Shown here in pieces: positions 4,228 to 64,000 of a DNA stretch of 64,000 nucleotides. This DNA comes from Massalongia carnosa (lineage: Eukaryota), in contig OZ287071.1 in the NCBI GenBank assembly GCA_965645245.1, forward strand, positions 1,922,001-1,986,000, given 5' to 3'. The notes beneath the pieces were generated by a model. That model was not told the DNA's origin, did no database searches, and saw only the letters and a list, made by a program, of their open reading frames with translations. Each line of letters opens with the position of its first letter. Within the stretch, counting starts at the first letter, position 1. Both the position numbers and the translations under genes were made by a program.

Positions 4228-6026
4228 TCGAATTTTATCGAATATGTGTTTGGAATTCTTTGATAAATAGGGTTATTTTCTGCAATCTTCAATAATCGAA
4301 TTGCGTATTTTTGATTTTTCATTAATAATCGAAGTTTAACTGGTAAAACATGTGATTCAATTTCCATCGCCTGAACAGGTGTGGTTTTGAAAGTTCCTAA
4401 AATCTTTCGAATGATTTGATTTTCTAGGTTCTGAAATAGTTTTTCATATTTCTTTTGACCATTATACCAAATTTCTGAGCCGTAGTCCGAAATAGGAATA
4501 ATGCATGACATATAGAGCTGTCTGCATGCGGTCGGTTTCAGACCCCATTCGGATTTCATCAAATTCTGAATTGCAAAAAACGATCGATTCGCAGAAGCGA
4601 TCCGCGTTTCGACGTGTTTTTTGAAATTTAGTTTTCGGTCTAACCAGACGCCCAACCATTTGACTACATTTTTCGGTTCTAGTACTGTCCCGTTTGGTAA
4701 TTCCAATGTGTCTTTCGATACATTTCTTGTCTTTTCGAAGTGAATCAGCTCGGATTTATCGTCAACAAATTTGACATTATTCGATACGGCCCAATCAAAG
4801 GCCGTTTCGACTATGATTTCGATTTCTTTGCAATTCTGTTTTGCAGTTATATTTTCGACATATATTGCAACATCGTCAATAAAACTGGGAGAATGTGCAT
4901 TGAATTTCATTCGTATTTTCGGAAACAAGTGACGAATGTAAATCAGAAATAGAATAGGCGAGATTGGTGAGCCTTGTGGAATTCCTGATTTGACATAATA
5001 TGTTTTGCTTAAATTTTCATCAAATATCAATTTGATCGATCGTTTTGTCATGAAATGCTTGACCCATTGAATTATTATGCGAGAAAATTTCAGCTTTTTC
5101 ATAACATTTAGCAGTTGATTAATCGAGACAAAGTCAAATGCGCCTTTGACATCGAGTAATAGACATGATAAGACGTTTTTATTTCTATTTGCAATTTCTA
5201 TATCATGAACAACGTTTATTACTGCGTCAATTGCAGAATGATTTTTGCGTCCGCCCATCTGTTCGATATCGAGTAAATTCGAATTTTCGCCGAAGTAGGC
5301 TAGTCGATTTGCAACGATTTTCTCAGCAATTTTACCAAGACAATTTAGTAATGTGATAATTCGATATGATTTTGGAAACGAATAGTCTGATTTATTAGGT
5401 TTTTTCAGAACTGCACCGAGTCCTGGTCGCCCGCATTACGGGTGATAACCGATTCTAATGAATTTCGAATAAATCATGAAAAACACGTTTTTCAACTATT
5501 GAAACGATTTTTGAACAATTATAAAATTGATTGCATCAGGTCCACATGCTTTCTTTGGATTAAATTAACTAATCGCATTTTTCAACTCGTTTTCGGTCAA
5601 GTCTGGCCAATTATCATCATTTTCGCTGTCTTGATTTGATAATCTTCCTCATTATTGTCAATAAATCGGTTTTTTGTATATATTTCTGACACAAATGCAT
5701 CGCATTTGTCATTAAACTGAACATTTAGCTTGTTTTCATGTAGAATCGGCGGTATTTTTTCGAATATGCGCGGTTTAGTGTATTTATACGCGGTAAATAC
5801 ATCTTTATTTGCTGCATTTTCTAGAAAAGTCAACCATGTTTGTTGTTTTGCTTTTCGAATTGCATGAAAATACTCGATTCGACTATGTTTAAACGTCCGA
5901 TGACTAAAATCGGAGGGATAATTCTTCTATTCTTGACGATGTCTGCACATGGTTTTTCGAAGTTCAGTTAAATCTTGCGACTACCAATTTTTCGATTTTG
6001 CACAAATTTTCGTTTTCGGAATAAAC
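4228..6026 (-). pseudogene. Central ORF2 (RT) fragment of degenerate A-type LINE X
   Basis: RT motifs LLDVKGAFD, QGSPISP and SFIDD with stops and frameshifts. Continues at 14257 after the TSD. Confidence 0.9.
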
Positions 6027-6258
6027 TATTTTTTTTATTTATTCATTAAGTGTATTCAACCTAAGGTTATGACACTAAACTATTTTAAGATATGGTTTTA
6101 TGTTACAAATAAATCAACCCTTTATAACCCAACTATCTATCGTCAATATTGCCCCGTTTTTACTCCGTGTTAGTAACAACCTTTAGTAATCGAAATATCG
6201 ATTTTACAATTTGTTTTTGTAAAGCTCGTAAATATTCCAGCATAAATCATTTCTAATT

Positions 6259-9200
6259 TTACCGTTCGATCTCTCCCCAACCTCCCGTTTCGATATTTTC
6301 GTCATCGAGCTGACCTAGCATCCATTTTCTAGTCGCGATTTTGTTATCAACAATATATTTAATCAAAATATTATTTCCGATCCTAGTATTAAACAACATT
6401 TTTAAAGTAATTGTGGTATCGATATTTTGTTTCATGTTTAGGATTTCATTTGAATAATGTATGCAATTCATCAATAAGTGTTCTGGCGTTTGACGTTCGT
6501 TGCAGCGCCCTGTGCATTTTGACGAATTATAATCTTTCAATCGGTGCAGATATGATCGAAAATAACCGTGTCCGAATTTCATTTGCATAATAGTCGCAAA
6601 TATTAATTTCGAACAATTATTCGACAGATAATAAAAACTCGATTTGCCCGGCTGCATTTCGAATTTCTCATAGTATTTGCCTTTTGACTTGCATTGTTGC
6701 CATTGATTCTCCCATGTGGCTAACATATTTCGATTTATTTGACCCTTTACATAATCAAATGTTATTATCGAAGACTCGACTAGGATTTGACTATGTCCCG
6801 CTTTTGCTGCTTTATCTGCAATTTCATTTTCGACGATTTTCGAATGACTAGGAATCCATTGTAGAACCACCTGATAATTGTTTTCGAATAAGTATTTCGA
6901 GAATTTTCGAATTTGTTTTGCGTAAGTATGATTTGTCAAGTTCTGAATTTCGTTTATCGCGTTTATGCTATCGGAAAAAATCCAAATCGTTTTTTCCAAA
7001 TTGAAGAGAATATTCGCAATTGTCAATTTGTATGCCCATTTTATTGCTTGTAGTATCGCATAGAGTTCAGCGTTTTTAACGCTTGACTGTTTGTTTAATT
7101 TCCAGCTTTTCGAAATCGTATGATGTTTGAGGAGACAATCTTTTTCGATAAAACGATTGAAGTTATCGGTGAAATTGTTCCAATTTCGCATAATTGGTGC
7201 AAATGTGACAGCGGAAGTTGAAAACTCGGTTTTTGATCCATCGGTATAGAGTAACATTCGCGATTTATCGGCGTTTATTGATTGGATTTTTGATAAAGTC
7301 GAATAATAACTTGACTTTGCTGTTTCTTTGGATCTTTCGATTTGGAACTTGATTTTACAAGACGGCTTCCATGGTTTGATGAAATTATTTACTGATTCGA
7401 ATTCATCAGTTTTGTGAACTATATCCGAAACGGAATGAAGAATACGGATAAGCTGACTAGGATGAGGTTTACTCGATTTTTTCTCGTCTTCGTTCCATTC
7501 AGCATATCTGTTGTTCCATAAACTAGTGTCAAAACCGATGTTTTCGAATTTCACAGAATAGGTACTGGGAATTCTTTGACAAATAGGATTATTTTCGGCA
7601 ATCTTCAATAATCGAATTGCGTATTTTTGATTTTTCATCAACAATCGTAGCTTGGCTGGTAAAATATGCGATTCAATTTCCATCGCCTGAACAGGCGTGG
7701 TTTTGAATGTGCCTAAAATCTTTCGAATCATTCGATTTTGCAGATTCTGAAATAGCTTTTCATATTTCTTTTGACCGTTATACCAAATTTCTGAGCCATA
7801 GTCCGAAATAGGAATAATGCATGACAAATAGAGCTGTCTGCATTCAGTTGGCTTTAGTCCCCATTCAGACTTCATAAAATTTTGAATTGCGAAAAACGAT
7901 CGATTTGCAGAAGCAATTCGCGTTTCGACGTGTTTTTGTAATTTAGTTTTCGGTCTAACCAGACTCCTAACCATTTGACAGAATTTTTCGGTTCTAGTAT
8001 TGTCCCGTTTGGTAATTGCACTTTGTCTTTTGATGCATTTCTTGACTTTTCGAAGTGAATCAACTCAGATTTGTCGTCATCAAATTTGACATTATTCGTT
8101 GCGGCCCAATCAAAAGCTGTTTTGACGATAATTTCGATTTCTTTGCAATTCTGTGTGGCAGTTTTATTTTCGACATATATTGCAACATCGTCTATAAAGC
8201 TAGGTGAATGAGCATTGAATTTCATTCGTATTTTCGGAAATAAGTAACGAATATAAATCAGAAATAGAATTGGCGAAATTGGTGAACCTTGTGGAATTCC
8301 AGATTCGATATAGTACGTTTTGCTTTTGTGTTCATCGAATATCAAATTGATCGATCGTTTTGTCATAAAATGCTTGACCCATTGAATAACTATGCGAGAT
8401 AAATGCAGCTTTTTCATGACATTTAGCAATTGATTAATCGAAACAAAGTCAAATGCTCCTTTGACATCGAGTAATAGACATGATAAAACGTTTTTGTTTC
8501 GGTTTGCGATTTCGATATCATGAACGACGTTCATTACCGCATCGATTGCAGAATGATTTTTCCGTCCGCCCATTTGTTCGGTATCTAACAAGCTCGAATT
8601 TTCGCCGAGGTAGGCTAGTCGATTAGCAACTATTTTCTCCGCAATTTTACCAAGACAATTCAGTAAGGTAATAATTCGATATGATTTTGGCAGCGAGTAG
8701 TCTGGTTTATTAGGTTTTTTTAAAACAGCACCGAGTCCTGTTCGCCAACATAACGGGTGAAAACCGATTTGTATAAACTTAGAATAAATAGTAAAAAACA
8801 CGTTTTTCAATGGTTGAATCGATTTTTGAATTATTGTGAAATTGATTGCATCAGGTCCACATGATTTCTTTGGATTAAACAAACTAATCGCATTTTGCAA
8901 TTCATTTTCGGTTAAATTCGGCCAATTGTTGTCATTTTCGTTGTCTTGATTCGTTAAATCTTCAATATTATCATCCGTGAACGGGTTTTTTGTGTACATT
9001 GCTGACACAAACGCATCGCATTTGTGATCGAATTGAACATTTAACTTATTTTCATATTGAATAGGTGGTATTTTTTCGAACATGCGCGGTTTAGTGTATT
9101 TATAAGCTGTAAATACGTCTTTATTCGCTGCGTTTTCGAGGAAAGCCAACCAAGTTTGCTGTTTCGCTTTTCGAATTGCATGAAAGTACTCGATTCGAAT

Positions 9201-10270
9201 ATGTCTAAATGTTTGATGACTAAAATAGGACGGATTATTCTTCCATTCTCGACGATGTCTACACATGATTTTTCGAAGTCCGGATAAATCTTGCGACCAC
9301 CAATTTTTCGATTTTGCGCATATTTTTGTCTTCGGAATAAACATTTCAGCCGCGTTTTTGATAACGTTTTGCAAATATAACGCTGATTCATCAAATTGAT
9401 AATTGTTCAATAGACTTTGTATTTGGGACTCGTAGTTTACTGCATTTTCGTCTAGAAACTTCGCGAATTTATCCCAATCGGCTTTATTGCAGTTGTATTT
9501 ATTCGATAATGCGGTTGCGTGTGACGTCAAGTTCTTGAAAGACGCGATAAGTTCAAATCGAATAACTTCATGATCTGAACCCGTGACTGCGTTTTCATCG
9601 ATTGACCAATTTGTAATTGCGTTTTCGATTTTAGAATTTGCAAATGTTAAATCAATAATATATGAAGAGTTTCCTGAATGAGCAAAAAATGTATATAGAT
9701 CAGGCGTATTTATCAAACTACATTTGTTTAATTTTAACCATTTGACTAGATTTTCTGATCGAATTGCATTTTGAATCTTCGAATTCCACCAGCTATGATG
9801 TGCATTGAAATCTCCACATATGACAAATTGATCAGTTGATATAGGTTGATATTTAACTAAAAGTCGATCGATTGTATATGTTTCTCGATCGTTTAGACTT
9901 TTTTCATTGTAAAGGTTAAAGATCTGCACTTTTCGAACTTCATCAATTGTAATTTCGATAATTTGCAGATCAGTATCGTTTATAAGATCCGTTCTAGGCG
10001 TTCATTGCAATTTTGGATTGCATTTTGTAACGAATATAGCTACTCTCGGCCGATAAGTCGCTATTTTCGGCATAATACATGTGAATGACGGATGGGAAAT
10101 TGTTTTTTGATCTCGCGTCCATGGTTCCTGAAATAAACAATATCAACACGATTTAATACTGCATATTCCAGACACGAAATCATTGCATTCGTTGACTTTG
10201 CACAATTATGTTGAATAAATTTGACATTTTGTGTATTTTCGATATTTGTCAACGAATGTTGTCCCGCCAT
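6259..10270 (-). pseudogene. LINE B1 ORF2 (APE-RT-RNase H-CCHC), disrupted
   Basis: Pieces 10061-10270, 7872-9929 and 6259-7974. 1-nt deletions near 10135 and 7935 and a stop near 10001 relative to B3. Confidence 0.9.
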
Positions 10271-11806
10271 TAACCAAGCATTAATTCATCATTCGATTTT
10301 CTAGGATTTAGCGATATAAACATTTCGCAACCTATATCGTTCGATTGATGATTTTTGTTGCAATTGACGCATTTCAGAATTGCATGTGCGCATGCGATTT
10401 TAGACTTGCATGTTGTGCATTCATGATTATGCGTTTCATGACTTTGTGCGCATATATTGCATTTTGCCGGACTTTTGCATTGATAATGCTTATGTCCAAA
10501 TTTCTGACAATTAATACATTGCGTGTTTGGACGAACGGATGCAAATATTTCCGTGTCACAATGTCTACCCGCGATATTCACGCCTCTTAACGCGTTTGAC
10601 GCTTAATTTTGATTATTGAAAGTCAAAACTACCGACGACGTGACTTTGTTTTGACGATCCCGAGCAAGCCATCTTGGTAAATCGCATAGTTGCATATTCG
10701 AATTGTATTTTTCGATTTCGGTTTGCAAATATTGCATGTTATTATCGAATAACGAGATATTTACTCCGTGTGCTATGACTTTAAACCAGGATTCGTCTTT
10801 TCGAATTCTTTGTGATTCGAAAATGTGTTCCCATGAAGATTTATTTTTCAACAATTCTTCGGCATTGTTGTAAGGGCTAGTGGTGAGATCGATATTCTGA
10901 CCGGTTTTGGACTTTTCAACAGTATTGACGATGATGTTTAAATTTGCGTTTTTTAATAGCGCGTTAATTTCATCACGCAACTTCATAGAGTCGATTTGAG
11001 CGTCAGGATTTTTCGGTGAAATCACGAGTCGTCTGGCCTTGATTGCATCAAATCGATCGACTTTGTTCGAATTATGATTCGAACTTTTTCTTTGAATAGT
11101 AGTCCAATTTTCGGAGTTTTCGGTTGCTTTTCCAAGCATTTGACTCCATGTACCGGTTGTGCTAACATATTTACCAGAGACCCCGGTAGCTCCTTTGCGA
11201 ATGGTCTGATTTTCGATAATTGAATTTTCGTTCAATTTAACAACAGGTTTTTGGATTTTTGGACCATTCTGTAGTGGAGTCGTTTGTTGTTGTGACGTTT
11301 TTGAGGAAAGATGACTAGTTTGATCAAGTACTATGCCCATTTTATAGTTAATCATATCTAAGGATGTTTGTAAATTGATTGATTTTTTCGAAATCAACGA
11401 ATTAACGTTGTCAATTACGATAGCCGTTTGTGGATTTTGGTCCAGTACAAATGATTGCAATAATAATTTTGGCCGACTTTAGAAGCTCAATTGAATTTGC
11501 CCGATTGATCGCTTCTTGGCTATCTCTCGAATGTTCGTCAAATGTGCGTCTTTTATTTCGTTTGATTGGTGGGCTTGATCCAATGTTTAAGTTCAATGAA
11601 GGCATCGGCAAGATAGTGGAAAATGGACCCGATGGGAATTTCGTTGCCTTTGGTGTCGGTGTTGACGGGGCTGATGCATATTCGCGAGTTTGATCCATAG
11701 GTTCAAGACGGGGAGAGCTCCCTATCAACGCCACCGGAGATGGTCCGGGCGAGTGTCCGGGGGGGGCCGGGTAAGGGGTCGATAGGGGGGCGGGACTGGC
11801 TGGGGG
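10270..11806 (-). pseudogene. LINE B1 ORF1, 5'-truncated and disrupted
   Basis: Matches 58078-59606. Stop at 10603, frameshift near 11465. First ~15 codons and 5'UTR are replaced by passenger sequence at 11806/11807. Confidence 0.88.
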
Positions 11807-12607
11807 CTAAGAATGATAAAATTGAGTTGACATCTCTCTCCTTCGTGAAGTCTCTATCCCAGTTTTCGTTCATCTCACTGGTGCGTTTTACGGCCCAAGA
11901 TTATTGATGAATTCTACGATTGGGGTGAACGACGTCCCTTTCGCCCAGGTCAAACCCAGTTTACTCCTTAAGCATATATCAAGGGCGAGTCTAGCCGTAG
12001 CCCATGCGCCGGCGAACCGACGGGGTCTCGTTACGAGCGAGATAGACATTCCCTGCTCTATATACACCGACATGCGCATACTGTCCTCTCGGGCTATGCA
12101 GACGGTCTCCGTACGGTGGCCGCCATTGCATACCACGCCTCACGGGTTTTTTACGCCCACTTCGCGTTATTCATAAAGGTCTCCCGTTTATGAACCGACC
12201 ATGTCTCGCAGGGATTTCGATCACTATGCTCCTGACCAGGCAGTATAGTATCGATTTTCCGTCCCTACTAACCAAAACGAGTCGAGGACAACTCGGAGGG
12301 GTGCTCGTTTGAAATTCGTCTATTAGCTCAGGGCCTAGACTGTTATCAATTAACGGGTTCCTCGTATATTGCCCTCTTCTTGTCCCAAGGGTGTCCTATT
12401 TGATGACTAGGTTGCCTCCACCATCCCCGGTACGACTCCGGTTCGGGCCGTGTTGCTCACGGTAGCCATCAATCGGATGGTTTTCATAACCCAAATCCCT
12501 TGTATCGTGTAGGGTGTGACCCTACACTATGTGTCTATATGTTTTATTTCTTTCAGCCGGAGGGCTCCGTGTTGTAGACGAAGGAGACCCGTGTGACAGA
12601 CATAGCT

Positions 12608-13160
12608 CGGACACGGCTATTTTCGATCTTATTTACAGCGATTGAAAGATTATAATTCGTCAAAATGCACAAATCGATGCAATCAACGACAAACGCCAGA
12701 ACACTTATTATTGAATTGCATTCACTATTTCGATGAAATTCGAAACATGAAACAAAATATCGATACTACCATCAACTTGAATATGTTGTTTAATACAAAA
12801 ATCGGAAATGAAATTTTGATTAAATTCATTGTCAATAACAAAATCGCGACAAGAAAATGGATACTAGGTCAGCTTGATGACGAGATTTTCGAAACTGGAG
12901 GTTGGGGAGAGATCGAACAGTAAAATCAGAAACGATTTATGCTGAAACATTCACGAACTTACAAAGACAAATTTTAAAATCGATATTCTTCGATTACTAT
13001 AGGTTGTTACTAACACGGAGTAAAAATGGGGAAAAATTGACAATACATAGATGGGTTATAAAGGGTTGATTTATTTGTAATATAGAAACATATCCTAAAA
13101 TAGTTTAGTGTCATAACCTTAGGTTGAATACACTTAATGAATAAATAAAAAAATAAAAAA
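12608..13160 (+). mobile_element. 5'-truncated A-type LINE 3' fragment nested in the passenger
   Basis: ORF2 C-terminus (...GGWGEIEQ), 3'UTR and A tail. TSD ACAGACATAGCT at 12596-12607 and 13161-13172. Empty site in copy 2 near 63612-63625. Confidence 0.93.
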
Positions 13161-13174
13161 ACAGACATAGCTGA

Positions 13175-14007
13175 CCCGTGTCGTACGTCTTTAGCTCTCA
13201 GCCGATGACTGCATGAAAGGACTTGAACCTTTAAGAGTATGACTGAACGTTGTTAACGAGGTCTATGAAAATCTTATTAACGAGGTCTTCGAGAACAATA
13301 TTAACGAAGTTCCGCTGAACTATTTTCATTCGTTTTGTGATCCATCGAGGTCTACCCGTGTCAAATCCACACCATGCCCGTGTCAAAATGCATCATTTTC
13401 AGCTGATGACTGCTAGAAAGGACTTGAACCTCTAAAAATATGTACGCCGATATTAACGGGGTGCAGATCTGTCTTAACGAGCCCCCGCAGAACCCTCTTC
13501 ACAGGGACGTGTTATTGATTTGTGATTGTGTTTTTTGTGACTGTGTGTTTTGTGACTGTGTGTTTTGTGACTGTGTGTTTTGTGACTGTGTGTTTTGTGA
13601 CTGTGTGTTTTTTGACTGTGTGTTTGTGACTGTATGTTTGTGACTGTGTGCTTTGTAACTGTGTGCTTTGTACAACGTGTGATTGATGACTATGTGTTTT
13701 GTGACTCTGTGTTTTCCTCGATTTTATTTAACGGGCCGGGCCTATTAAATGGGATATTGTTATTCTGCTCCGAGATGGAGTTTTCTTGAGGTGACAGCAT
13801 TCGCCCCGGTGCCTTTACGCGTTCTGTTGATCCCAGCTGATGACTGCATGGGGAGACTTGAACTCTCAGGAGCTAGAACGCGTGTCGATTGTGCCCGGGT
13901 GGGGGATGATGCGGCTCCTTTGGTCCACATCTTCTTCCAGCTGATGACTGCATGAAGGGACTTGAACCCTTAGAAGCATGGTGCAGGGACGCGCGCATTC
14001 TACCCCC
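13175..14007 (-). ncRNA. Putative structured RNA domain: four T-loop modules on long stalks
   Basis: Cores at 13195-13237, 13395-13439, 13831-13871 and 13934-13976. Covarying stems around an invariant ACTTGAA (minus strand TTCAAGT) loop. Confidence 0.6.
13521..13668 (+). repeat. 15-bp minisatellite (TGTGACTGTGTGTTT), ~10 units
   Basis: Direct inspection; ~6 degenerate units at 63173-63264 in copy 2. Confidence 0.9.
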
Positions 14008-14153
14008 CGGCGGTTGGCCTTCGTATCCTCTTCCGTACGTACGTCTGCGACGCGTGTGAACGCGTTAAATTAGCATTGTTTTGATGCGAAAAGATAGGAG
14101 CAAATCTATGTTTGTCAGTCGCTCCACGGTGAGGCCTTTGGCGTCTCCGTAGT

Positions 14154-14256
14154 GAGGACCGATAGTGTAGAAGGAGGAGGACCGATGGTGTAGAAGGAGG
14201 AGGACCGATATATAATAATGTGATAGTAAATATGATAGTAAATGTGATAGTAAATG
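14154..14256 (+). repeat. 23-bp tandem repeat (~2.4 units) followed by 12-bp tandem repeat TRTGATAGTAAA x3
   Basis: GAGGACCGATRGTGTAGAAGGAG units at 14154-14209; 12-mers at 14219-14254. Confidence 0.9.
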
Positions 14257-16239
14257 TTTCGGAATAAACATTTCAGCAACGTTTTTGATAACGTTTTGCA
14301 AATATATCGCTGATTCGTCGAATTGATTATTATTCAAAAAACTATGAACTTGTGATTCGTAGATGGTTGAATTTTTGTCTAGATACTTCGCGAATTTATT
14401 CCAATCGGCTTTATTGCAATTTTATTTATTCGATAATGCGGTTGCATGTGACGTCGAATCTTTGAAAGATGCGATTAGTTCAAATCGGATGACTTCATGA
14501 TCAAAACCTGTGACTGCGTTTTCATCGATTGACCAATTTGAAATTGCATTTTCGATTTTAGAATTTGCAAAAGTTAAATCAATAACAGATAAAGAACTTC
14601 CAGAATGGGCGTAGTATGTACATAAGTCAGGTGTGTTTATCAAGCTACACCTGTTTAATTTCAACCATTTGACAAGATTTTCTGTTCGAATTGCTTGTTG
14701 AATTTTCGAATTCCACCAGTTATGATGTGCATTGAAATCTCCACAGATGACGAATTGATCAGTTGATTTTGGTTGTAATTGGATTAAAAGTCGATCGATC
14801 GTGTATGTTTCTCGATGACTTTGACTTTTTTCGTTATAAATATTGAAAATCTTCACTTTTCGAACTTCATCAAGTGTAATTTCAATAATTTGCATATCGG
14901 AATCGTCAATAAGATCCGTTCTAGGCGTGCATTGCAGTTTGGAATTGCCATTTGTGACAAATATAGCTACTCTCGAGCGATAAGTCGCTATTTTTGGCAT
15001 AATACATGTAAATGACGGATGTGATATTGTTTTTTGATCTCGTGTCCATGGTTCCTGAAACAAAACAATATCAATTTGATTTGATAAAGCATATTCCAAA
15101 CACGATATCATTGCATTCGTTGACTTTGCACAATTATGTTGAATAAATTTAACATTTTGTGTATTTTCGATGTTTGTCAACGAATGCTGTCCTGCCATTA
15201 CAAAGCGGCTAATTCGTCAGTCGATTTTCGAACATTTAACGATATAACCATTTCACAATTTTCATCATTGGATTGATGATTCTTGTTGCAATTCGCGCAT
15301 TTGACGACGGCGTGTGCACAAGCAATTTTTGACTTGCATGTTGTGCATTCATGATTGCGTGTTTCATGGTTTTGCGCACATATGCTGCATTTCGCTTGAC
15401 TTTTGCATTGATAATGCTTGTGTCCAAATTTTTGACAATTAATGCATTGTGTGTTTAGACGAACGGAGGTAAATATTTCCGTGTCACAATGTCGGCCCGC
15501 GATATTGACTCCTTTTAACGCGTTCAAGGCCATATTTCGATCATTGAATGTCAAAACAACGGATGATTTGATCTTGTTATGACGATCACGTGCTAGCCAT
15601 CTGGGAACATCGCATAATTGCATGTTCGAATTGAACTTTTGAATTTCGTCTTGCAAATATTGCATGTTTTCATCAAATGTTGCAATATTTACACCGTGTG
15701 CGACGACTTTGAACCACGATTCGTCCTTTCGAACTGTTCGTGGGTCGAATAAATGCTCCCATATTGATTTATTGTTCAATAAATCTTCAGCAGTGTTATC
15801 AGGACTAGTAGTCAGAACGATGTTTTGACCCGTTTTGGACTTTTCGACCGTGTTAACAACGATAGTCAATTTCGCGTCTTTAAAAAGCGAATTGATTTGG
15901 TTTCGAAGCAACAGTGAATCGATATCGCCGATTTGAGCTTTCGGTGTGATTATCAATCGTCGAGATTTGATCGCCTTGAAATCGTCAGTATTATCGAATT
16001 TGTTCGCATTCGAATTATTGTTGTTGTACTTGTTTGTTTTTTTGGATCGAGGAACGGTAGTCCAATTTTCGGAATTGACAGTCGCTTTTCCGAGCATTTG
16101 GCTCCATGTTCTAGCTGTATCGTTGACCTGCGGCCCTGGGACTCCGGCGGTTTCGCTCCGAATTTCTGGGTTGACGTTTTTAGTCAAATTCGAATTTCCA
16201 TTTGAATTTCCCTTGGATTTTTTCTGTATAGGATGCACC
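14257..16239 (-). pseudogene. 5' portion of LINE X (ORF2 APE domain and ORF1 C-terminal ~345 aa), cut at the inversion junction
   Basis: ORFs 14422-15198 and 15198-16247 match A1. Resumes exactly at the TSD. Confidence 0.9.
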
Positions 16240-19200
16240 TTAAACAAATGTAGTTTGATAAATACGCCTGATCTATATACATTTTTTGCTCATTCAGGAA
16301 ACTCTTCATCTATTATTGATTTAACATTTGCAAATTCTAAAATCGAAAACGCAATTACAAATTGGTCAATCGATGAAAACGCAGTCACGGGTTCAGATCA
16401 TGAAGTTATTCGATTTGAACTTATCGCGTCTTTCAAGAACTTGACGTCACACGCAACCGCATTATCGAATAAATACAACTGCAATAAAGCCGATTGGGAT
16501 AAATTCGCGAAGTTTCTAGACGAAAATGCAGTAAACTACGAGTCCCAAATACAAAGTCTATTGAACAATTATCAATTTGATGAATCAGCGTTATATTTGC
16601 AAAACGTTATCAAAAACGCGGCTGAAATGTTTATTCCGAAGACAAAAATATGCGCAAAATCGAAAAATTGGTGGTCGCAAGATTTATCCGGACTTCGAAA
16701 AATCATGTGTAGACATCGTCGAGAATGGAAGAATAATCCGTCCTATTTTAGTCATCAAACATTTAGACATATTCGAATCGAGTACTTTCATGCAATTCGA
16801 AAAGCGAAACAGCAAACTTGGTTGGCTTTCCTCGAAAACGCAGCGAATAAAGACGTATTTACAGCTTATAAATACACTAAACCGCGCATGTTCGAAAAAA
16901 TACCACCTATTCAATATGAAAATAAGTTAAATGTTCAATTCGATCACAAATGCGATGCGTTTGTGTCAGCAATGTACACAAAAAACCCGTTCACGGATGA
17001 TAATATTGAAGATTTAACGAATCAAGACAGCGAAAATGACAACAATTGGCCGAATTTAACCGAAAATGAATTGCAAAATGCGATTAGTTTGTTTAATCCA
17101 AAGAAATCATGTGGACCTGATGCAATCAATTTCACAATAATTCAAAAATCGATTCAACCATTGAAAAACGTGTTTTTTACTATTTATTCTAAGTTTATAC
17201 AAATCGGTTTTCACCCGTTATGTTGGCGAACAGGACTCGGTGCTGTTTTAAAAAAACCTAATAAACCAGACTACTCGCTGCCAAAATCATATCGAATTAT
17301 TACCTTACTGAATTGTCTTGGTAAAATTGCGGAGAAAATAGTTGCTAATCGACTAGCCTACCTCGGCGAAAATTCGAGCTTGTTAGATACCGAACAAATG
17401 GGCGGACGGAAAAATCATTCTGCAATCGATGCGGTAATGAACGTCGTTCATGATATCGAAATCGCAAACCGAAACAAAAACGTTTTATCATGTCTATTAC
17501 TCGATGTCAAAGGAGCATTTGACTTTGTTTCGATTAATCAATTGCTAAATGTCATGAAAAAGCTGCATTTATCTCGCATAGTTATTCAATGGGTCAAGCA
17601 TTTTATGACAAAACGATCGATCAATTTGATATTCGATGAACACAAAAGCAAAACGTACTATATCGAATCTGGAATTCCACAAGGTTCACCAATTTCGCCA
17701 ATTCTATTTCTGATTTATATTCGTTACTTATTTCCGAAAATACGAATGAAATTCAATGCTCATTCACCTATTTTTTTTTATTTATTCATTAAGTGTATTC
17801 AACCTAAGGTTATGACACTAAACTATTTTAGGATATGTTTCTATATTACAAATAAATCAACCCTTTATAACCCATCTATGTATTGTCAATTTTTCCCCAT
17901 TTTTACTCCGTGTTAGTAACAACCTATAGTAATCGAAGAATATCGATTTTAAAATTTGTCTTTGTAAGTTCGTGAATGTTTCAGCATAAATCGTTTCTGA
18001 TTTTACTGTTCGATCTCTCCCCAACCTCCAGTTTCGAAAATCTCGTCATCAAGCTGACCTAGTATCCATTTTCTAGTCGCGATTTTGTTATTGACAATGA
18101 ATTTAATCAAAATGTCATTTCCGATTTTTGTATTAAACAACATATTCAAGTTGATCGTAGTATCGATGGTTTGTTTCATGTTTTGAATTTCATCGAAATA
18201 GTGAATGCAATTCAATAACAAGTGTTCTGGCGTTTGTCGTTGATTGCATCGATTTGAGCATTTTGACGAATTATAATCTTTCAATCGATGTAAATATGAT
18301 CGAAAATAGCCGTGTCCGAATTTTAATTGCATAATAGTAGCAAATATCAATTTGGAACAGTTGTTTGATAAATAATAAAATCTCGATATGCCAGGTTTCA
18401 TTTCGAATTTCTCGTAGTATTTGCCTTTTGATTTGCATTGTTGCCATTGATTCGTCCATGTGGTTAGCATATTTTGATTTATTTGATCTTTTACATAATC
18501 AAATGTTATAGCCGAGGACTCGACTAGGATTTGATTATGGCCCGTCTTTGCTATTTTGTCTGCAATTTCGTTTTCGGTAATATTCGAATGACTCGGAACC
18601 CATTGCAAAATCACCTGATAATTGCTTTCAAATAAGCGTTTTGCGAGCTTTCGAATTTGTCTTGCGAAAATATGATTTTTCAAGTTCTGAATTTCGTTTA
18701 TCGCGTTTATACTATCAGAAAAAATCCAAATCGTTTTTTCCAAGTTCGATAAAATATTAGTATTAGACAATTTATAGACCCATTTCATTGCTTGTAAAAT
18801 TGCATGCAGTTCAGCATTTTTAATGCTTGACTGTTTGCTTAATTTCCAGCTTTTCGAAATCGTATGATACTTGATCAGACAATCTTTTTCGATAAATCGA
18901 TCAAAATTATTGATAATACTACTCCAATTCCTCATAATTGGCGCAAGCTCATTCACCTAGCTTTATAGACGATGTTGCAATATATGTCGAAAATAAAACT
19001 GCCACACAGAATTGCAAAGAAATCGAAATTATCGTCAAAACAGCTTTTGATTGGGCCGCAACGAATAATGTCAAATTTGATGACGACAAATCTGAGTTGA
19101 TTCACTTCGAAAAGTCAAGAAATGCATCAAAAGACAAAGTGCAATTACCAAACGGGACAATACTAGAACCGAAAAATTCTGTCAAATGGTTAGGAGTCTG

Positions 19201-21133
19201 GTTAGACCGAAAACTAAATTACAAAAACACGTCGAAACGCGAATTGCTTCTGCAAATCGATCGTTTTTCGCAATTCAAAATTTTATGAAGTCTGAATGGG
19301 GACTAAAGCCAACTGAATGCAGACAGCTCTATTTGTCATGCATTATTCCTATTTCGGACTATGGCTCAGAAATTTGGTATAACGGTCAAAAGAAATATGA
19401 AAAGCTATTTCAGAATCTGCAAAATCGAATGATTCGAAAGATTTTAGGCACATTCAAAACCACGCCTGTTCAGGCGATGGAAATTGAATCGCATATTTTA
19501 CCAGCCAAGCTACGATTGTTGATGAAAAATCAAAAATACGCAATTCGATTATTGAAGATTGCCGAAAATAATCCTATTTGTCAAAGAATTCCCAGTACCT
19601 ATTCTGTGAAATTCGAAAACATCGGTTTTGACACTAGTTTATGGAACAACAGATATGCTGAATGGAACGAAGACGAGAAAAAATCGAGTAAACCTCATCC
19701 TAGTCAGCTTATCCGTATTCTTCATTCCGTTTCGGATATAGTTCACAAAACTGATGAATTCGAATCAGTAAATAATTTCATCAAACCATGGAAGCCGTCT
19801 TGTAAAATCAAGTTCCAAATCGAAAGATCCAAAGAAACAGCAAAGTCAAGTTATTATTCGACTTTATCAAAAATCCAATCAATAAACGCCGATAAATCGC
19901 GAATGTTACTCTATACCGATGGATCAAAAACCGAGTTTTCAACTTCCGCTGTCACATTTGCACCAATTATGCGAAATTGGAACAATTTCACCGATAACTT
20001 CAATCGTTTTATCGAAAAAGATTGTCTCCTCAAACATCATACGATTTCGAAAAGCTGGAAATTAAACAAACAGTCAAGCGTTAAAAACGCTGAACTCTAT
20101 GCGATACTACAAGCAATAAAATGGGCATACAAATTGACAATTGCGAATATTCTCTTCAATTTGGAAAAAACGATTTGGATTTTTTCCGATAGCATAAACG
20201 CGATAAACGAAATTCAGAACTTGACAAATCATACTTACGCAAAACAAATTCGAAAATTCTCGAAATACTTATTCGAAAACAATTATCAGGTGGTTCTACA
20301 ATGGATTCCTAGTCATTCGAAAATCGTCGAAAATGAAATTGCAGATAAAGCAGCAAAAGCGGGACATAGTCAAATCCTAGTCGAGTCTTCGATAATAACA
20401 TTTGATTATGTAAAGGGTCAAATAAATCGAAATATGTTAGCCACATGGGAGAATCAATGGCAACAATGCAAGTCAAAAGGCAAATACTATGAGAAATTCG
20501 AAATGCAGCCGGGCAAATCGAGTTTTTATTATCTGTCGAATAATTGTTCGAAATTAATATTTGCGACTATTATGCAAATGAAATTCGGACACGGTTATTT
20601 TCGATCATATCTGCACCGATTGAAAGATTATAATTCGTCAAAATGCACAGGGCGCTGCAACGAACGTCAAACGCCAGAACACTTATTGATGAATTGCATA
20701 CATTATTCAAATGAAATCCTAAACATGAAACAAAATATCGATACCACAATTACTTTAAAAATGTTGTTTAATACTAGGATCGGAAATAATATTTTGATTA
20801 AATATATTGTTGATAACAAAATCGCGACTAGAAAATGGATGCTAGGTCAGCTCGATGACGAAAATATCGAAACGGGAGGTTGGGGAGAGATCGAACGGTA
20901 AAATTAGAAATGATTTATGCTGGAATATTTACGAGCTTTACAAAAACAAATTGTAAAATCGATATTTCGATTACTAAAGGTTGTTACTAACACGGAGTAA
21001 AAACGGGGCAATATTGACGATAGATAGTTGGGTTATAAAGGGTTGATTTATTTGTAACATAAAACCATATCTTAAAATAGTTTAGTGTCATAACCTTAGG
21101 TTGAATACACTTAATGAATAAATAAAAAAAATA
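16240..21133 (+). mobile_element. Inverted duplicate of B1 (6027-9731)
   Basis: Same private frameshift (LNYKNTSKRELL), identical 571-aa ORF, and same poly(A)/X junction. Confidence 0.92.
17771..18946 (-). mobile_element. 5'-truncated A-type LINE (RNase H to 3' end)
   Basis: TSD GCTCATTCACCTA at 17758-17770 and 18947-18959. Empty site at ~8201-8213 in the left arm. Confidence 0.94.
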
Positions 21134-22599
21134 GTTTATTCCGAAAACGAAAATTTGTGCAAAATCGAAAAATTGGTAGTCGCAAGATTTAACTGAACTT
21201 CGAAAAACCATGTGCAGACATCGTCAAGAATGGAAGAATTATCCCTCCGATTTTAGTCATCGGACGTTTAAACATAGTCGAATCGAGTATTTTCATGCAA
21301 TTCGAAAAGCAAAACAACAAACATGGTTGACTTTTCTAGAAAATGCAGCAAATAAAGATGTATTTACCGCGTATAAATACACTAAACCGCGCATATTCGA
21401 AAAAATACCGCCGATTCTACATGAAAACAAGCTAAATGTTCAGTTTAATGACAAATGCGATGCATTTGTGTCAGAAATATATACAAAAAACCGATTTATT
21501 GACAATAATGAGGAAGATTATCAAATCAAGACAGCGAAAATGATGATAATTGGCCAGACTTGACCGAAAACGAGTTGAAAAATGCGATTAGTTAATTTAA
21601 TCCAAAGAAAGCATGTGGACCTGATGCAATCAATTTTATAATTGTTCAAAAATCGTTTCAATAGTTGAAAAACGTGTTTTTCATGATTTATTCGAAATTC
21701 ATTAGAATCGGTTATCACCCGTAATGCGGGCGACCAGGACTCGGTGCAGTTCTGAAAAAACCTAATAAATCAGACTATTCGTTTCCAAAATCATATCGAA
21801 TTATCACATTACTAAATTGTCTTGGTAAAATTGCTGAGAAAATCGTTGCAAATCGACTAGCCTACTTCGGCGAAAATTCGAATTTACTCGATATCGAACA
21901 GATGGGCGGACGCAAAAATCATTCTGCAATTGACGCAGTAATAAACGTTGTTCATGATATAGAAATTGCAAATAGAAATAAAAACGTCTTATCATGTCTA
22001 TTACTCGATGTCAAAGGCGCATTTGACTTTGTCTCGATTAATCAACTGCTAAATGTTATGAAAAAGCTGAAATTTTCTCGCATAATAATTCAATGGGTCA
22101 AGCATTTCATGACAAAACGATCGATCAAATTGATATTTGATGAAAATTTAAGCAAAACATATTATGTCAAATCAGGAATTCCACAAGGCTCACCAATCTC
22201 GCCTATTCTATTTCTGATTTACATTCGTCACTTGTTTCCGAAAATACGAATGAAATTCAATGCACATTCTCCCAGTTTTATTGACGATGTTGCAATATAT
22301 GTCGAAAATATAACTGCAAAACAGAATTGCAAAGAAATCGAAATCATAGTCGAAACGGCCTTTGTTTTTTTTATTTATTTATTCATTAAGTGTATTCAAC
22401 CTAAGGTTATGACACTAAACTATTTTAGGATATGTTTCTATATTACAAACAAATCAACCCTTTATAACCCATCTATGTATTGTCAATTTTTCCCCATTTT
22501 TACTCCGTGTTAGTAACAACCTATAGTAATCGAAGAATATCGATTTTAAAATTTGTCTTTGTAAGTTCGTGAATGTTTCAGCATAAATCGTTTCTGATT

Positions 22600-46351: not shown

Positions 46352-46781
46352 TGTAATAGCGCGGCAATACAGGACTGCGCTAGCTCCTGGGATGACTCAC
46401 TCAAGAAGCCCGGGTGACTGATAATCCGGATGCTTAGTCATGATAAGGCGGATAGCAATACTAAGCCATCAGCAATCAGCCTTACCAGTTTGTTAGGCAG
46501 CAACTGAAGCTATTCAGATAAGCCTCGATCTCATGGGAGGCCTGGGACGCCTAGGAGACCTCAGCTGAAGGCAGCAAGGCTATCTACTAGACCTCAGCTG
46601 AAGGCAACAAGGCAGACAGGTAACCAGACAAGTAGTTAGTAAATAGAACCCCATGGGGTATATAGAAAGCTCGATTCCCATCTTCAGGGAATCAGCTTTT
46701 AGCTTTAGCACCTACCAATCTATTAGCAGTCACACTGAGCATTATAACCCATAAGGACTAGTGTCTACTGTCCCTCTTATA
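46352..46781 (+). repeat. 5' LTR
   Basis: TGTAAT...CTTATA. About 7 substitutions versus the 3' LTR counted by eye. TATATA at 46659. Confidence 0.95.
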
Positions 46782-46784
46782 ATT

Positions 46785-46793
46785 CTAAAAGCT
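46785..46793 (+). promoter_or_regulatory. Self-priming primer-binding site
   Basis: CTAAAAGCT is the exact complement of AGCTTTTAG at 46694-46702, ~30 nt after the TATA. Confidence 0.7.
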
Positions 46794-46881
46794 CCATATC
46801 TTAGGATAGCTTGGTCCGACTGTTGATAGTTCAATCCTATCACACCTACCGTCCAAACAATTCAACCTATTTATCGTCAAC

Positions 46882-62373: not shown

Positions 62374-64000
62374 GTTAACCCAGATACTCGACAGACTTTG
62401 TCCATCCACAATTGGATTGTTGCTCATATTAATTAATGTCCGTTTTGGAGGCAATAAGACTCATGAAGAAGAATTTCATTCTACGAGTTTGATCCCACGA
62501 GTATAATCTAGTGTAGATATAAAGTCACCAGAGATCGGTGGTCCTCCTTCTACACCATCGGTCCTCCTCCTTCTACACCATCGGTCCTCCTCCTTCTACA
62601 CCATCGGTCCTCCTCCTTTTACACCATCGGTCCTCCTCTTTCTACACCATCGGTCCTCCTCCTTCTACACCATCGGACCATCGGTCCTTATAACGGAGAC
62701 GCCAAAGGCCTCACCGTGGGGCGAACGTCAAATATATTGATTTGCTCCTATCTCTTTGCATCAAAACAATGCTAATTTAACGCGTTTACACGCGTCGCAG
62801 ACGTACGTACGGAAGAGGATACGAAGGCCAACCGCCGGGGGTAGAATGCGCGCGTCCCTGCACCATGCTTCTAAGGGTTCAAGTCCCTTTATGCAGTTAT
62901 CAGCTGGAAGAAGATGTGGACCAAAGGAGCCGCATCATCCCCCACCCGGGCACAGTCGACACGCGTTCTAGCTCCTGAGAGTTCAAGTCTACCCATGCAG
63001 TCATCAGCTGGGATCAACAGATCGCGTAAAGGCACCGGGGCAAATGCTGTCACCTCAAGAAAACTCCATCTCGGAGCAGAATAAAAATATCCCATTTAAT
63101 AGGACCGGCCTGTTAAATAAATCGTGGAAAACAGAGAGTCACAAAACACATTGTCATCAATTATACGTTGTACAAAGTACACAGTTACAAAGCACACAGT
63201 CACAAAGCACATAGTCACAAATATACAGTCATAAAACACACAGTAACAAAAAATACAGTCACAAATCAATAACACGTCCCTGTGAAGGGGGTTCTGCGGG
63301 GGCTCGTTAAGACAGATCTGCACCCCGTTAATATCGGAATACATATTTTTAGAGGTTCAAGTCCTATTTAGCAGTCATTAGCTGAAAATAATGTATTTTG
63401 ACTCGAGCATGGTTTGGATTTCACTCGGGTAGACCTCGATGGATCACAAAACGAATGAAAAGAGTTCAGCTGAACTTCGTTAATATTGTTCTCGAAGACC
63501 TCGTTAATAAGATTTTCATAGACCTCGTTAACAACGTTCGGTCCTACTATTAAAGGTTCAATTCCTTTCATGCAGTTATCGGCTGAGAGCTAAAGAAGTA
63601 CGACACGGGTCAGCTATTTCTATCTCACGGGTCTCCTTCGTCTACAACACGGAGCCCTCCGGCTGAAAGAAATAAAACATATGGACACATAGAGTAGGGT
63701 CACACCCTACACGATACAAGAGATTTAGGTTATGAAAACTATCCGATTAATGGCTACCGTGAGCAACACGGCCCGAACCGGAGTCGTACCGGGGATGGTG
63801 GAGGCAACCTAGTCATTAAATAGGACACCCTTGGGACAAGAAGAGGGCAATATACGAGGAACCCGTTAATTGATAACAGTCTAGGCCCTGAGCTAATAGA
63901 CGAATTTCAAACGAGCACCCCTCCGAGTTGTCTTCGACTCCTTTTGTGCGCATGTCGGTGTATATAGAGCAGGAAATGTCTATCTCGCTCGTAACGAGAC
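62374..64000 (+). mobile_element. Passenger element copy 2 (runs off the window edge)
   Basis: 62540-64000 is the reverse complement of 12025-14209 with scattered substitutions, no nested LINE and a 194-bp deletion. T-loops at 62878, 62982, 63356 and 63557. Confidence 0.85.
62540..62688 (+). repeat. 23-bp tandem repeat CCATCGGTCCTCCTCCTTCTACA, ~6 units
   Basis: Direct inspection. Confidence 0.93.

Follow-up and report, generated by a model that had tools for sequence, protein, structure and literature searches.

The window, the whole 64,000-nt stretch of DNA that was analysed, carries four repeats on its minus strand that were confirmed as true copies of one small, conserved and covarying RNA fold. 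The unit that contains these repeats, here called modules, is the 5' head of a head+LINE chimera of the MINE/WEIRD type, in which the head is joined to a truncated LINE with APE, RT and RNase H domains. We hold this identity and architecture (module fold, head and chimera) with high confidence.

The modules are listed below, with core spans taken from P1 to P1' and scores given in bits of a covariance model.

13933..13976, minus strand: module A, P1 CUUCU/GGAAG, P2 AAGGG/CCCUU, loop UUCAAGU, P3 CAGU/GCUG with loop CAUCA; 68.9 bits
13829..13872, minus strand: module B, P1 UCCU/GGGA, P2 GAGAG/CUCCC, one A-C mismatch; 65.6 bits
13395..13438, minus strand: module C, P1 AUUUUU/GAAAAU (extendable), P2 AGAGG/CCUUU; 67.4 bits
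13194..13237, minus strand: module D, P1 CUCUU/GAGAG, P2 AAAGG/CCUUU, P3 loop in the variant form CAUCG; 67.8 bits
62868..63590, plus strand: modules of head copy 2, A' (62868-62911), B' (62972-63015), C' (63346-63389) and D' (63547-63590)

The letters of P1, P2 and the loop on the minus strand were found as the preliminary description had given them, including the near-invariance of the loop and the conserved strand (UUCAAGU in all four modules; CAUGCAGUCAUCAGCU or a one-base variant in each). Its statement that all four modules recur in copy 2 with extra mismatches also held: each copy 2 module had zero to two more mismatches within the pattern in addition to stem changes, the extra changes were mostly C-to-T, and scores ranged from 55 to 63.9 bits. 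A degenerate module pattern with up to three mismatches matched eight times in 64 kb, four times on the minus strand and four times on the plus strand (62878-63585), with all eight matches in the two head copies; the same pattern had no match in 100 dinucleotide shuffles of the window (0 expected). The covariance model found the 8 modules of the window at 55-69 bits and placed the next-best match at 12.5 bits.

Outside the window, the module was detected in 32 metagenome loci (90 matches), on contigs that appear to be fungal-type: four ESM Atlas records give Eukaryota, with Ascomycota the most frequent label, and one sequencing run that carries the sequence is annotated as lichen metagenome. 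Every homologue came from a single metagenome scan, in which loci were retrieved by an exact pattern for the loop and a 14-mer and further modules were collected at up to three mismatches; since the retrieval pattern demanded those letters, part of the invariance seen in the loop and the 14-mer comes from the search itself. The module had no match in 185,579 prokaryote genomes and none in IMG/VR. The 14-mer, in DNA, RNA and reverse-complement forms, was absent from the literature searched, in which the T-arm 11-mer alone turned up, and a literature search for a T-loop motif together with a fungal non-LTR retrotransposon gave nothing relevant.

Four modules alone offer few independent comparisons, so a larger alignment was needed, and covariation was evaluated in 54 distinct modules, 46 from the metagenome loci and 8 from the window. 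Paired cells made up 88.9% of P1 and P2, compared to 74.9 +/- 0.9 in shuffles (none of 500 reached the observed value), and double-change cells numbered 136 against 48.8 +/- 10.4 (0 of 500), in a shuffle control that ignores kinship between sequences. Slid controls, with the partner shifted by 1-3 columns, gave 13-56 double-change cells. Pairing in P2 extended to 95.9% of cells, with double changes at four of its five pairs. Double changes occurred at five of the six pairs of P1, whose 25 distinct 5' strands were present in 35 strand combinations, 27 of them fully paired or with one mismatch in five. G20 and C28 were invariant and UUCAAGU was at least 90% conserved in the 54 modules, the loop having been required by the search pattern. 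The earlier claim that P1 and P2 vary in sequence and stay paired was thus upheld in the larger alignment.

RNAalifold independently recovered P1, P2 and P3, with compensation at 9 of 13 pairs. Pairing in P3 was kept through a change from CAG/CUG to GAG/CUC in two sequences, from U-G to C-G in one and from U-G to U-A in one. The presence of this third short helix, CAGU/GCUG, makes the module a three-way junction. The helices P1 and P2 were borne out as first described, but the U-G pair said to close P1 competes with the third-helix pair C37-G49 (54-module alignment numbering), which RNAalifold preferred. G-U cells outnumbered A-C cells (91 vs. 29 of 756) and the module was therefore assigned to the LINE-sense strand; pairing statistics and G-U bias agree on a recurrent, covarying, RNA-type motif on the strand that had been named. 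Single-sequence folding energies of the modules were at the level of shuffles (z of -0.46 to +0.32), so the fold would need tertiary contacts or a protein; the three-way junction was the minimum-energy fold in modules A and D only, and B and C fold otherwise. The energies of the four modules were no better than those of shuffles on either strand, and thermodynamics therefore does not discriminate.

The module is a three-way junction of about 45-60 nt on the LINE-sense strand, running in the order P1 (variable in sequence, 4-12 bp), one U, P2, joiner, P3 and then directly the 3' strand of P1. P2 is a 5-bp stem closed by G-C and bearing the tRNA T-loop sequence UUCAAGU, the joiner between P2 and P3 has 4-8 nt with a purine as its last base, and P3 is CAGU/GCUG with the loop CAUCR.

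The same letters can be read at the level of DNA. The consensus of the pol III B box is GGTTCRANNCC, and that of the A box, 30-60 nt upstream of the B box, is TRGCNNAGTGG. The module and a GTTAA 29-30 nt upstream of it might constitute a promoter or insulator monomer of an internal promoter of the head, combining a TFIIIC-type B box, the E-box CAGCTG and further factor sites, with the RNA fold secondary or shared, as in tRNA genes; we consider this unlikely. The module sequence GGTTCAAGTCC matches the B box consensus, with the full box in three of the four window modules and its core in all four, and conserved module letters read also as CAGCTG. Modules stand in 183-bp tandem units in one family, and GTTAA lies at a fixed upstream offset of 28-31 nt in 36 of 64 distinct modules, against a background of 1.45 per kb, a phasing that promoter monomers explain as easily. 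Such an arrangement would be akin to the pol III boxes found in SINEs or to the monomers that stand in tandem in the 5' UTRs of mouse L1, and retrocopies presumably require an internal promoter. A protein site on duplex DNA, however, does not explain why P1, which is outside all of these sites, remains complementary through at least 25 sequences, and it leaves unexplained the compensated changes in P2 and P3 and the bias of G-U over A-C. The 1847-nt head has no A box at one mismatch or fewer, its one two-mismatch site being 93 nt upstream of module D, and a distance of 230-860 nt separates the 5' end of the head from its first module, much more than the geometry of a type-2 pol III promoter allows. 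T runs of six or more were absent from about 12 kb of heads in which A runs of six were present, as this alternative would have it, but T4-T5 runs occurred. A pol III transcript for the head as such was considered and set aside: with T4-T5 runs present and no A box, the case stays weak despite the missing longer T runs.

The RNA fold thus remains the preferred reading of the module, and its setting was defined by the following features.

14256..14269, minus strand: target-site duplication, upstream copy, GTTTATTCCGAAAC, lying within LINE-A, which is interrupted here
14210..14255, minus strand: simple repeat, (ATTTACTATCAC)n-like, 46 nt, between the duplication and the 23-mer array of the head
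13163..14209, minus strand: 5' part of head copy 1, with 23-mer tandem repeats, modules A-D and a 15-mer microsatellite
12607..13161, plus strand: nested, 5'-truncated LINE 3' fragment with A-rich tail, inserted in head copy 1 and foreign to it
11807..12606, minus strand: 3' part of head copy 1, ending ...UCAUUCUUAG, with a conserved structured core at 11942-12277
6029..11806, minus strand: LINE-B, with ORF1, APE-RT, RNase H and A-rich tail, fused directly to the 3' end of the head
6012..6026, minus strand: downstream copy of the target-site duplication, GTTTATTCCGAAAAC, directly after the LINE-B tail
62534..64000, plus strand: head copy 2, extending beyond the window and lacking 194 nt of the core (equivalent to 12079-12272)

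The preliminary description had treated the unit as a non-coding retroelement of 0.8 kb. It is indeed non-coding and mobilised by a LINE, but it is the 5' head of a chimera rather than a free-standing element, and its extent had been set too small: the head of the window measures about 1.85 kb (related heads, 1.2-2.0 kb) and contains a second, larger, conserved structured domain. The longest ATG open reading frame of the head has 89 amino acids, and none of its six antisense open reading frames had a Pfam match. The 3' domain of about 700 nt showed 60-75% nucleotide identity across 10 other loci, and 36 of the 85 predicted pairs in its 330-nt core had compensatory changes. Module number and position differed between head families. 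The head is accordingly a non-coding RNA of 1.2-1.9 kb with two to four modules in its 5' or middle part; its 3' domain is conserved and covaries, and its 3' end is conserved as AU(U/C)CUU(G/A)G. A free head RNA would be expected to end in ...AUUCUUAG or ...CUUGG.

LINE-B has neither the 5' UTR proper to the LINE nor the very beginning of ORF1; the head meets it inside the N-terminus of ORF1, with only the first ~100 nt of ORF1 missing. A target-site duplication of 14-15 bp surrounds the head and LINE-B together. At 691 and 25669 the window has uninterrupted, 'empty' LINE copies whose sequence continues across the duplication site without a break, and the loose end at 14257 of a contig from sequencing run X5 continues with the sequence found at 6012..6026. 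At loci L001/L026 and L012, 13-bp duplications, after a (TAAT)n tail, flank chimeras with 5'-truncated heads; the other six insertions had no clear duplication, their LINE end perhaps being beyond the locus, or just AT-rich repeats of 10-14 nt. Because one target-site duplication flanks the whole chimera, the head and the LINE piece were laid down in one LINE-type integration. Nine independent related insertions had nine different LINE junctions and a head 3' end constant within 3 nt. Heads were 5'-truncated at varied points with the 3' end fixed, and another junction, 93 nt away, was present in contigs of runs X1 and X7. A site-specific LINE insertion beside a pre-existing head was rejected since the duplications enclose head and LINE, 5'-truncated heads included, and a splice junction as the source of the fixed head end was set aside since no AG stands before the LINE sequence at the junction in the window. 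Telomerase RNA was also considered for the head and discarded, the head having no CCCTAA/TTAGGG template-like string and the unit being multi-copy.

Heads were always found upstream of LINE sequence and on the same strand, and copy 1 of the window is short of just the beginning of ORF1, as could be expected if the head were the ordinary 5' UTR of an autonomous full-length LINE subfamily whose modules serve translation or packaging (an IRES or an ORF1p site). We regard this as improbable. Not one of about 12 junctions was seen at a LINE 5' end; they fell at ORF2 residues 14, 515, 635, 795, 832 and elsewhere. The window also holds four other LINE copies with a shared 5' UTR of another kind, free of the module, and a 5' UTR does not account for heads that are truncated variously at the 5' side while their 3' end stays fixed.

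The chimera reading has a close precedent. MINE elements of Magnaporthe are chimeric retroelements of WEIRD and the MGL LINE, in which WEIRD is reported to be full-length up to a fixed 3' end, the LINEs to be variably 5'-truncated and the target duplications to be 10-20 bp (PMC2104539). The same study describes WEIRD as 1113 nt long, non-coding and expressed, with no solo copies and with 28 junction sites among 33 chimeras (PMC2104539); it is said there to have no relatives elsewhere, no structure is described and its function is called unknown (PMC2104539). The present elements share with MINE a non-coding 5' part with one fixed 3' position, LINEs truncated at different positions, many different junctions, the lack of solo heads and one target-site duplication around the whole chimera (in the window and at L001/L026 and L012). 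In contrast to WEIRD as reported, the present head forms a family found on many contigs, its modules covary and its 3' domain is structured, and its length is 1.85 kb in the window and 1.2-2.0 kb elsewhere compared to ~1.1 kb; the likeness described here is one of architecture. The comparison of sequence covered two published WEIRD primers, which had no match at up to five mismatches in the window and the 32 loci.

The module was compared with described RNA families. Rfam 15 gave no match in the window at gathering thresholds, in agreement with the preliminary description's view of an unrecognised motif; at E up to 10, the region 11700-14300 had only two unrelated weak matches, neither on a module, and at E up to 5 there was none in 10 related loci. 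A likeness of AGUC..CAGCU to the SRP Alu domain was dismissed, its helices not corresponding to those of 7SL. The ribozyme offered earlier as an alternative found no support. A small self-cleaving ribozyme that processes the transcripts of heads or tandem repeats would suit the small junction, the near-invariant unpaired letters, the 183-nt repeat spacing in one family and the CUGAUGA on the opposite strand, and we consider it very improbable: these searches yielded no known ribozyme family, modules do not coincide with the 5' end, the 3' end or a truncation point of any head, and retrocopies hold two to four intact modules in series. A hammerhead has helices I-III around a CUGAUGA...GAAA core and an NUH cleavage site; one on the plus strand was rejected, as its CUGAUGA is not followed by a helix II before the next helix, GAAA is not conserved (module B has GGGG, with GAA absent), Rfam gave no match and G-U pairs turn into A-C mismatches on that strand.

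The consensus of the tRNA T-loop is T54-Psi55-C56-R57-A58-N-Y, and in three dimensions the T-loop motif is further marked by a reverse Hoogsteen pair, U54-A58, and by a base intercalated between positions 57 and 58. The module resembles the T-arm in its 5-bp, G-C-closed stem and in its 7-nt loop, UUCAAGU, which carries the U-U-C-R-A signature and fits this consensus throughout. No acceptor, D or anticodon arrangement is present, and the helix order P1-T arm-P3-P1' is not that of tRNA (acceptor, D, anticodon, T). The helix contiguous with the T stem stands on the 5' side, a 13-nt hairpin rather than the acceptor 3' strand follows the T stem, and loop positions 59-60 (GU), free in tRNAs, are fixed. 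ARAGORN detected no tRNA gene in the window, as anticipated from the reported lack of a cloverleaf, and the tRNA family had no Rfam match at E up to 10. That the modules are remnants of degenerating tRNA genes or tRNA-derived SINEs without present function, paired by inheritance or chance, is hardly credible: their T-arm sequence is a perfect tRNA T-arm and the same 11-mer occurs in published tRNA sequences, but there is no cloverleaf, P1 and P3 are not tRNA parts and yet are conserved or covarying across contigs 60-75% identical elsewhere, and none of the 21 variant sites in 13163-14209, among the 40 of 140 variants listed, hit the 168 nt of the modules.

Since the junction is new in each independent insertion, the head probably exists as an RNA of its own, with a 3' end that is defined and not polyadenylated. 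This RNA would be joined to LINE sequence anew in each cycle, either through template switching by the LINE reverse transcriptase or through RNA ligation ahead of reverse transcription, as in U6/L1. The modules may act as autonomous folding and docking units: the junction would hold the likeness of a T-arm or elbow in place for binding by a LINE protein or by a host factor that recognises tRNA arms, which would stabilise the head RNA or draw the head into the LINE ribonucleoprotein, and several modules per head would add avidity. Judged from sequence, this role of the modules in a LINE-dependent head RNA is put forward tentatively, with the binding partner a guess. Taken as a whole, RNA-module fold, head+LINE chimera and docking role together form the best explanation we can offer and, on balance, a probable one.

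SINEs are short RNAs made by pol III, and the 3' end used for priming is their own. The head may be likened to them, and to Alu with SRP9/14, in being a non-coding RNA with a structured module resembling a small RNA and a putative dependence on LINE proteins; the idea of a module that brings an RNA to the LINE machinery would be common to both. Unlike SINEs, the head takes its 3' end from the LINE piece that follows it, and it has neither an A box nor similarity to 7SL, 5S or a whole tRNA. A further comparison is with the U6 snRNA/LINE-1 chimeras of mammals, whose joining is reported as possibly due to RNA ligation by the tRNA ligase RtcB or to template switching (PMC6789731). The likeness is in an RNA with a defined non-polyadenylated 3' end (for the head, a probable one), a variably truncated LINE and target duplications, whereas U6 serves the cell as a housekeeping RNA and is encoded by genes of its own, and the present head, seen only in chimeras, is 10-20 times longer and carries tRNA-arm-like modules. 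In Helenus, tRNA-like sequences in the LTRs of fungal non-autonomous LTR elements are reportedly interpreted as a pol III promoter (PMC10886601); here the T-arm occurs alone, inside a different, covarying fold and in a LINE-borne head.

Chimeras of a head and a LINE, as in MINE/WEIRD, were first described in 2005-2007, in a single fungus (PMC2104539). What is new is that a MINE-like head belongs to a widespread conserved family with RNA covariation, a tRNA-arm-like module and a second structured domain. The identity of the head and its constant partnership with LINEs become testable, given defined helices, a defined 3' end and a covariance model for tracing the family, and the module is a candidate new structured RNA motif for fungi, a kingdom with few known. 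In a wider reading, which is possible but doubtful, heads are an unrecognised family of highly structured non-coding RNAs of 1.2-2 kb that live as obligate 'front-end' parasites of Tad/I-type LINEs across ascomycete-type fungi, with the WEIRD of Magnaporthe perhaps a member. Their modules would be tRNA-arm mimics that recruit LINE proteins or a tRNA-handling factor, for which tRNA ligase, a T-arm-modifying enzyme or the ribosome would be candidates, and each head RNA, which defines its 3' end itself, would be coupled to LINE RNA or cDNA in every cycle. If true, non-autonomous retrotransposition would here follow a route other than that of SINEs, built on a new RNA fold.

Two features within the bounds of copy 1 stand somewhat apart. 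The 46-nt simple repeat at 14210..14255 was not common to copy 2; it represents nucleotides added at integration or else the outermost 5' sequence of the head. The nested fragment at 12607..13161 was 87-99% identical to at least nine other LINE 3' ends in the window, and it is missing from contigs of sequencing runs X2 and X7, which pass directly from 12604 to 13170.

The four modules of head copy 1, A to D, are repeated RNA folds of about 45-60 nt whose helix P2 carries a T-loop sequence, and reading of the sequence found them exactly as given in the preliminary description. They lie in a unit, or head, of non-coding RNA fused 5' of a truncated LINE, and the features of the two copies of this unit are as follows.

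13194-13976, minus strand: modules A-D of copy 1 (four of eight pattern matches)
62878-63585, plus strand: the four modules of copy 2 (the remaining four matches)
14209 to 11807, minus strand: head copy 1, an interrupted unit
12607-13161: 5'-truncated LINE 3' fragment inside head copy 1
11942-12277, minus strand: 330-nt core of the head 3' domain, in which RNAalifold predicts 85 pairs and compensatory changes support 36
14140-14209, minus strand: tandem array of the 23-mer ACCATCGGTCCTCCTCCTTCTAC at the head start, about three copies (copy 1)
62534-62690, plus strand: tandem array of the 23-mer ACCATCGGTCCTCCTCCTTCTAC at the head start, about six copies (copy 2)
13520-13700, minus strand, and 63130-63260, plus strand: array of a (CACAGTCACAAAA)-like 15-mer, lying between modules B and C (both copies)
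~13463-13467 and ~13262-13266, minus strand: GTTAA motif of modules C and D, respectively

A degenerate pattern of the loop and 3' strand, with three mismatches allowed, matched these eight modules in the 64-kb window and had no match in 100 shuffled sequences. The recurrence of the modules in copy 2 was borne out by alignment of both regions, which are two copies of one unit; the extra changes in copy 2 relative to copy 1 were mostly C-to-T. A covariance model built from the module alignment recovered only the eight modules from the window (55-69 bits; next match, 12.5 bits). ARAGORN detected no tRNA, in agreement with the reported absence of a cloverleaf. The window had no match in Rfam 15 at gathering thresholds, and at E up to 10 the region 11700-14300 gave only two unrelated weak matches, none on a module.

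Homologous modules were sought in metagenome contigs by a single scan for GGTTCAAGTCC-N6-GCAGTCATCAGCTG, which detected 32 loci: 21 from one assembly series, reportedly of Antarctic cryptoendolithic communities, nine from JGI records and two others. The core pattern had no exact match in 185,579 prokaryote genomes or in IMG/VR. A looser pattern found 86 modules in the loci and window together, with 54 distinct 64-nt contexts in a gap-free alignment, and the same covariance model found 90 modules in the loci, longer-joiner variants among them. The near-invariance of the loop and 14-mer is partly built in because the loci were retrieved by conserved letters; the stems were free in the search.

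Covariation of the helices, as claimed from the window, was upheld in the 54-context alignment (P1, columns 10-15 with 49-54; P2, columns 16-20 with 28-32). Pairing reached 88.9% of P1 and P2 cells compared to 74.9 +/- 0.9 with partners shuffled (reached in 0 of 500), and 136 cells had changed on both sides compared to 48.8 +/- 10.4 (0 of 500); sliding the partners by one to three columns gave 13-56 such cells. In P2, 95.9% of cells were paired, and 22 of 30 strand combinations were fully paired. P1 had 25 different 5' strands in 35 combinations, of which 11 were fully paired and 16 had one mismatch in five, the helix often resuming past a bulge. With no structure supplied, RNAalifold predicted P1 and P2 together with a third helix, P3, and nine of the 13 pairs are compensated. 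P3 (CAGU/GCUG closing CAUCA) is nearly invariant, and pairing is kept in all four variant sequences (C-G changed to G-C in two, both from one contig; U-G changed to C-G in one and to U-A in another). The U-G pair said always to close P1 is equivocal: its G is also used by P3, and two sequences favour each alternative.

G-U pairs exceeded A-C mismatches (91 vs 29 of 756 cells), which favours the strand predicted earlier and places the fold on the T-loop-bearing strand, in the sense orientation of the LINE next to it. Single-sequence folding energies on this strand gave the fold no support (z from -0.46 to +0.32); of the four modules, only A and D were predicted to adopt the module fold when folded alone.

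The window contains nested LINEs with endonuclease, reverse transcriptase and RNase H. Head copy 1 meets its LINE (LINE-B) at 11806, in the beginning of ORF1, a point at which a quite different 5' UTR is common to four other LINE copies of the window. LINE-B ends in an A-rich tail at ~6029, directly followed by GTTTATTCCGAAAAC, and the same 14-15 nt lie directly upstream of head copy 1, at 14269-14256. Two uninterrupted LINE copies, which represent the empty site, run straight through the duplication site, and the loose end of a contig from a sequencing run has the same continuation. The unit and LINE-B were thus inserted together into the interrupted LINE (LINE-A), with duplication of the target site. 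The term "non-coding retroelement" used previously thus holds for the unit as non-coding and fails for it as free-standing, since the target-site duplication has it integrated together with LINE-B. The head has no ATG open reading frame above 89 aa, and six antisense open reading frames of soil contigs had no Pfam match. Contigs of two sequencing runs bridge the site of the 12607-13161 fragment and lack it, and in contigs of two runs a second junction of the family to which the window head belongs lies 93 nt deeper in the LINE.

The same architecture was detected in other loci. The largest related family has a non-coding unit of ~1.96 kb that starts at a common point or at various 5'-truncated points and has a single 3' end, ...CATATCTATCCTT(GG). 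The LINE begins directly after this end at a position that differs between insertions (ORF2 residues 14, 515, 635, 795 and 832 by tblastn, and additional offsets from blastn comparison of the downstream parts), with nine different junctions in nine independent insertions. Two of the chimeras, whose heads are 5'-truncated, end in a (TAAT)n tail and are enclosed by 13-bp duplications. Three soil-type contigs have reverse-transcriptase sequence from about residue 700 directly 3' of the head end, and another locus has four modules followed by a LINE without most of ORF1.

Over its last ~700 nt the window head is 60-75% identical to heads at ten other loci, and the alignment is bounded by a conserved head end, AT(T/C)CTT(G/A)G. 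The 330-nt core is 65-75% conserved across contigs (homologous parts in L006, L007, L013, L016, L019, L020, L021, L023, L027 and L032), matches no Rfam family and contains long unpaired stretches that do not vary, among them GTAACGCGAAG, GAGAGGACAGT and TGCTTAAGGAGTAAAC. Copy 2 has lost 194 nt of the core (12079-12272 vs 63940-63947) that copy 1, the run contigs and all other families retain; copy 2 is probably dead because the deletion falls inside the conserved core. Heads carry two to four modules whose number and positions vary between families, and one site in the 3' domain is occupied by a module in four families but not in the others. The 15-mer array also varies in length, both between copies 1 and 2 and in run contigs (13550 joined to 13652).

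A mechanism may be proposed on a demonstrated basis: the fold and its strand, the existence of the head and of the chimeras, and integration in a single event. The head RNA is probably a separate molecule with a defined, non-polyadenylated 3' end, joined anew to LINE RNA or cDNA each time, because the junction is new in each insertion and the head end is constant. The determinant of that end would lie inside the head because the downstream sequence always differs, and the modules, too far from either end, would not set it. The module would best fit a docking or folding unit, because its unpaired letters are strongly constrained, its helices are weak and modules are multiple: it may be a T-arm/elbow look-alike bound by a LINE protein or by a host factor that binds tRNA arms or, alternatively, may pack against the rest of the head. 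Psi55 synthase recognizes GUUCNANNC in a stem-loop and the m1A58 enzyme recognizes GUUCRA, and given these patterns the two enzymes are cheap first candidates for module binders.

The main rival places the function in DNA, with the B box, E-box and a linked GTTAA motif as promoter monomers. Of 64 distinct modules, 36 have a GTTAA that begins 28-31 nt before the T-loop sequence (background, 1.45 per kb) and lies within the consensus GGGACTYGTTAATACYGGCTTT, often present in two to three copies ~25 nt apart; window modules A and B are without it. This consensus could be a 3-bp hairpin with the loop UUAAUAC, with a few compensated changes by eye, or a DNA site. In one head family (L001-L030, Antarctic series), a 183-bp unit holding the module is present as one to three tandem repeats, the copy number varies between insertions, and many copies show G-to-A and C-to-T decay (e.g., GTTAA to ATTAA). 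Promoter monomers account for why letters are conserved, why the motif is phased and why units stand in tandem, but leave the compensated helices and the strand bias unexplained; both readings could be true at once, by analogy with tRNA genes. Cleavage by a ribozyme, an alternative raised earlier, is unlikely because the modules are far from both ends and no truncation point falls at a module.

Chimeras of this type were already known, from one fungus. The MINE elements of Magnaporthe have the same architecture of head and LINE: as described in PMC2104539, WEIRD is a 1113-nt expressed non-coding RNA that is never solo, 33 chimeras with the MGL LINE have 28 different fusion sites, their duplications measure 10-20 bp, and template switching is the authors' explanation. 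The U6/L1 chimeras are analogous, and RNA ligation by RtcB before reverse transcription is reported for them in PMC6789731. Two WEIRD primers (PMC3978060) matched neither the window nor the 32 loci at up to five mismatches. Searches of Rfam 15, and of the literature by sequence string and topic, found no description of the module or its spread, of the structured 3' domain or of a conserved family of such heads.

Inverted stretches of 3421 and 1536 nt, 100% identical, occur at 4793-9731 vs 16240-22367 of the window. Together they make a nearly perfect palindrome that has the head-bearing region at its centre and is disrupted by a LINE fragment of 1.17 kb (17771-18946); it reflects either inverted duplication in the very recent past or an artefact of assembly. 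A Ty3-type LTR retrotransposon with gag and zinc knuckle, RT-RNase H and a Tf2-type SH3 domain occupies ~46500-53600, which is G+C-richer (46-49%), and identical weak model matches at 46580-46615 and 53555-53590 suggest its LTR pair.
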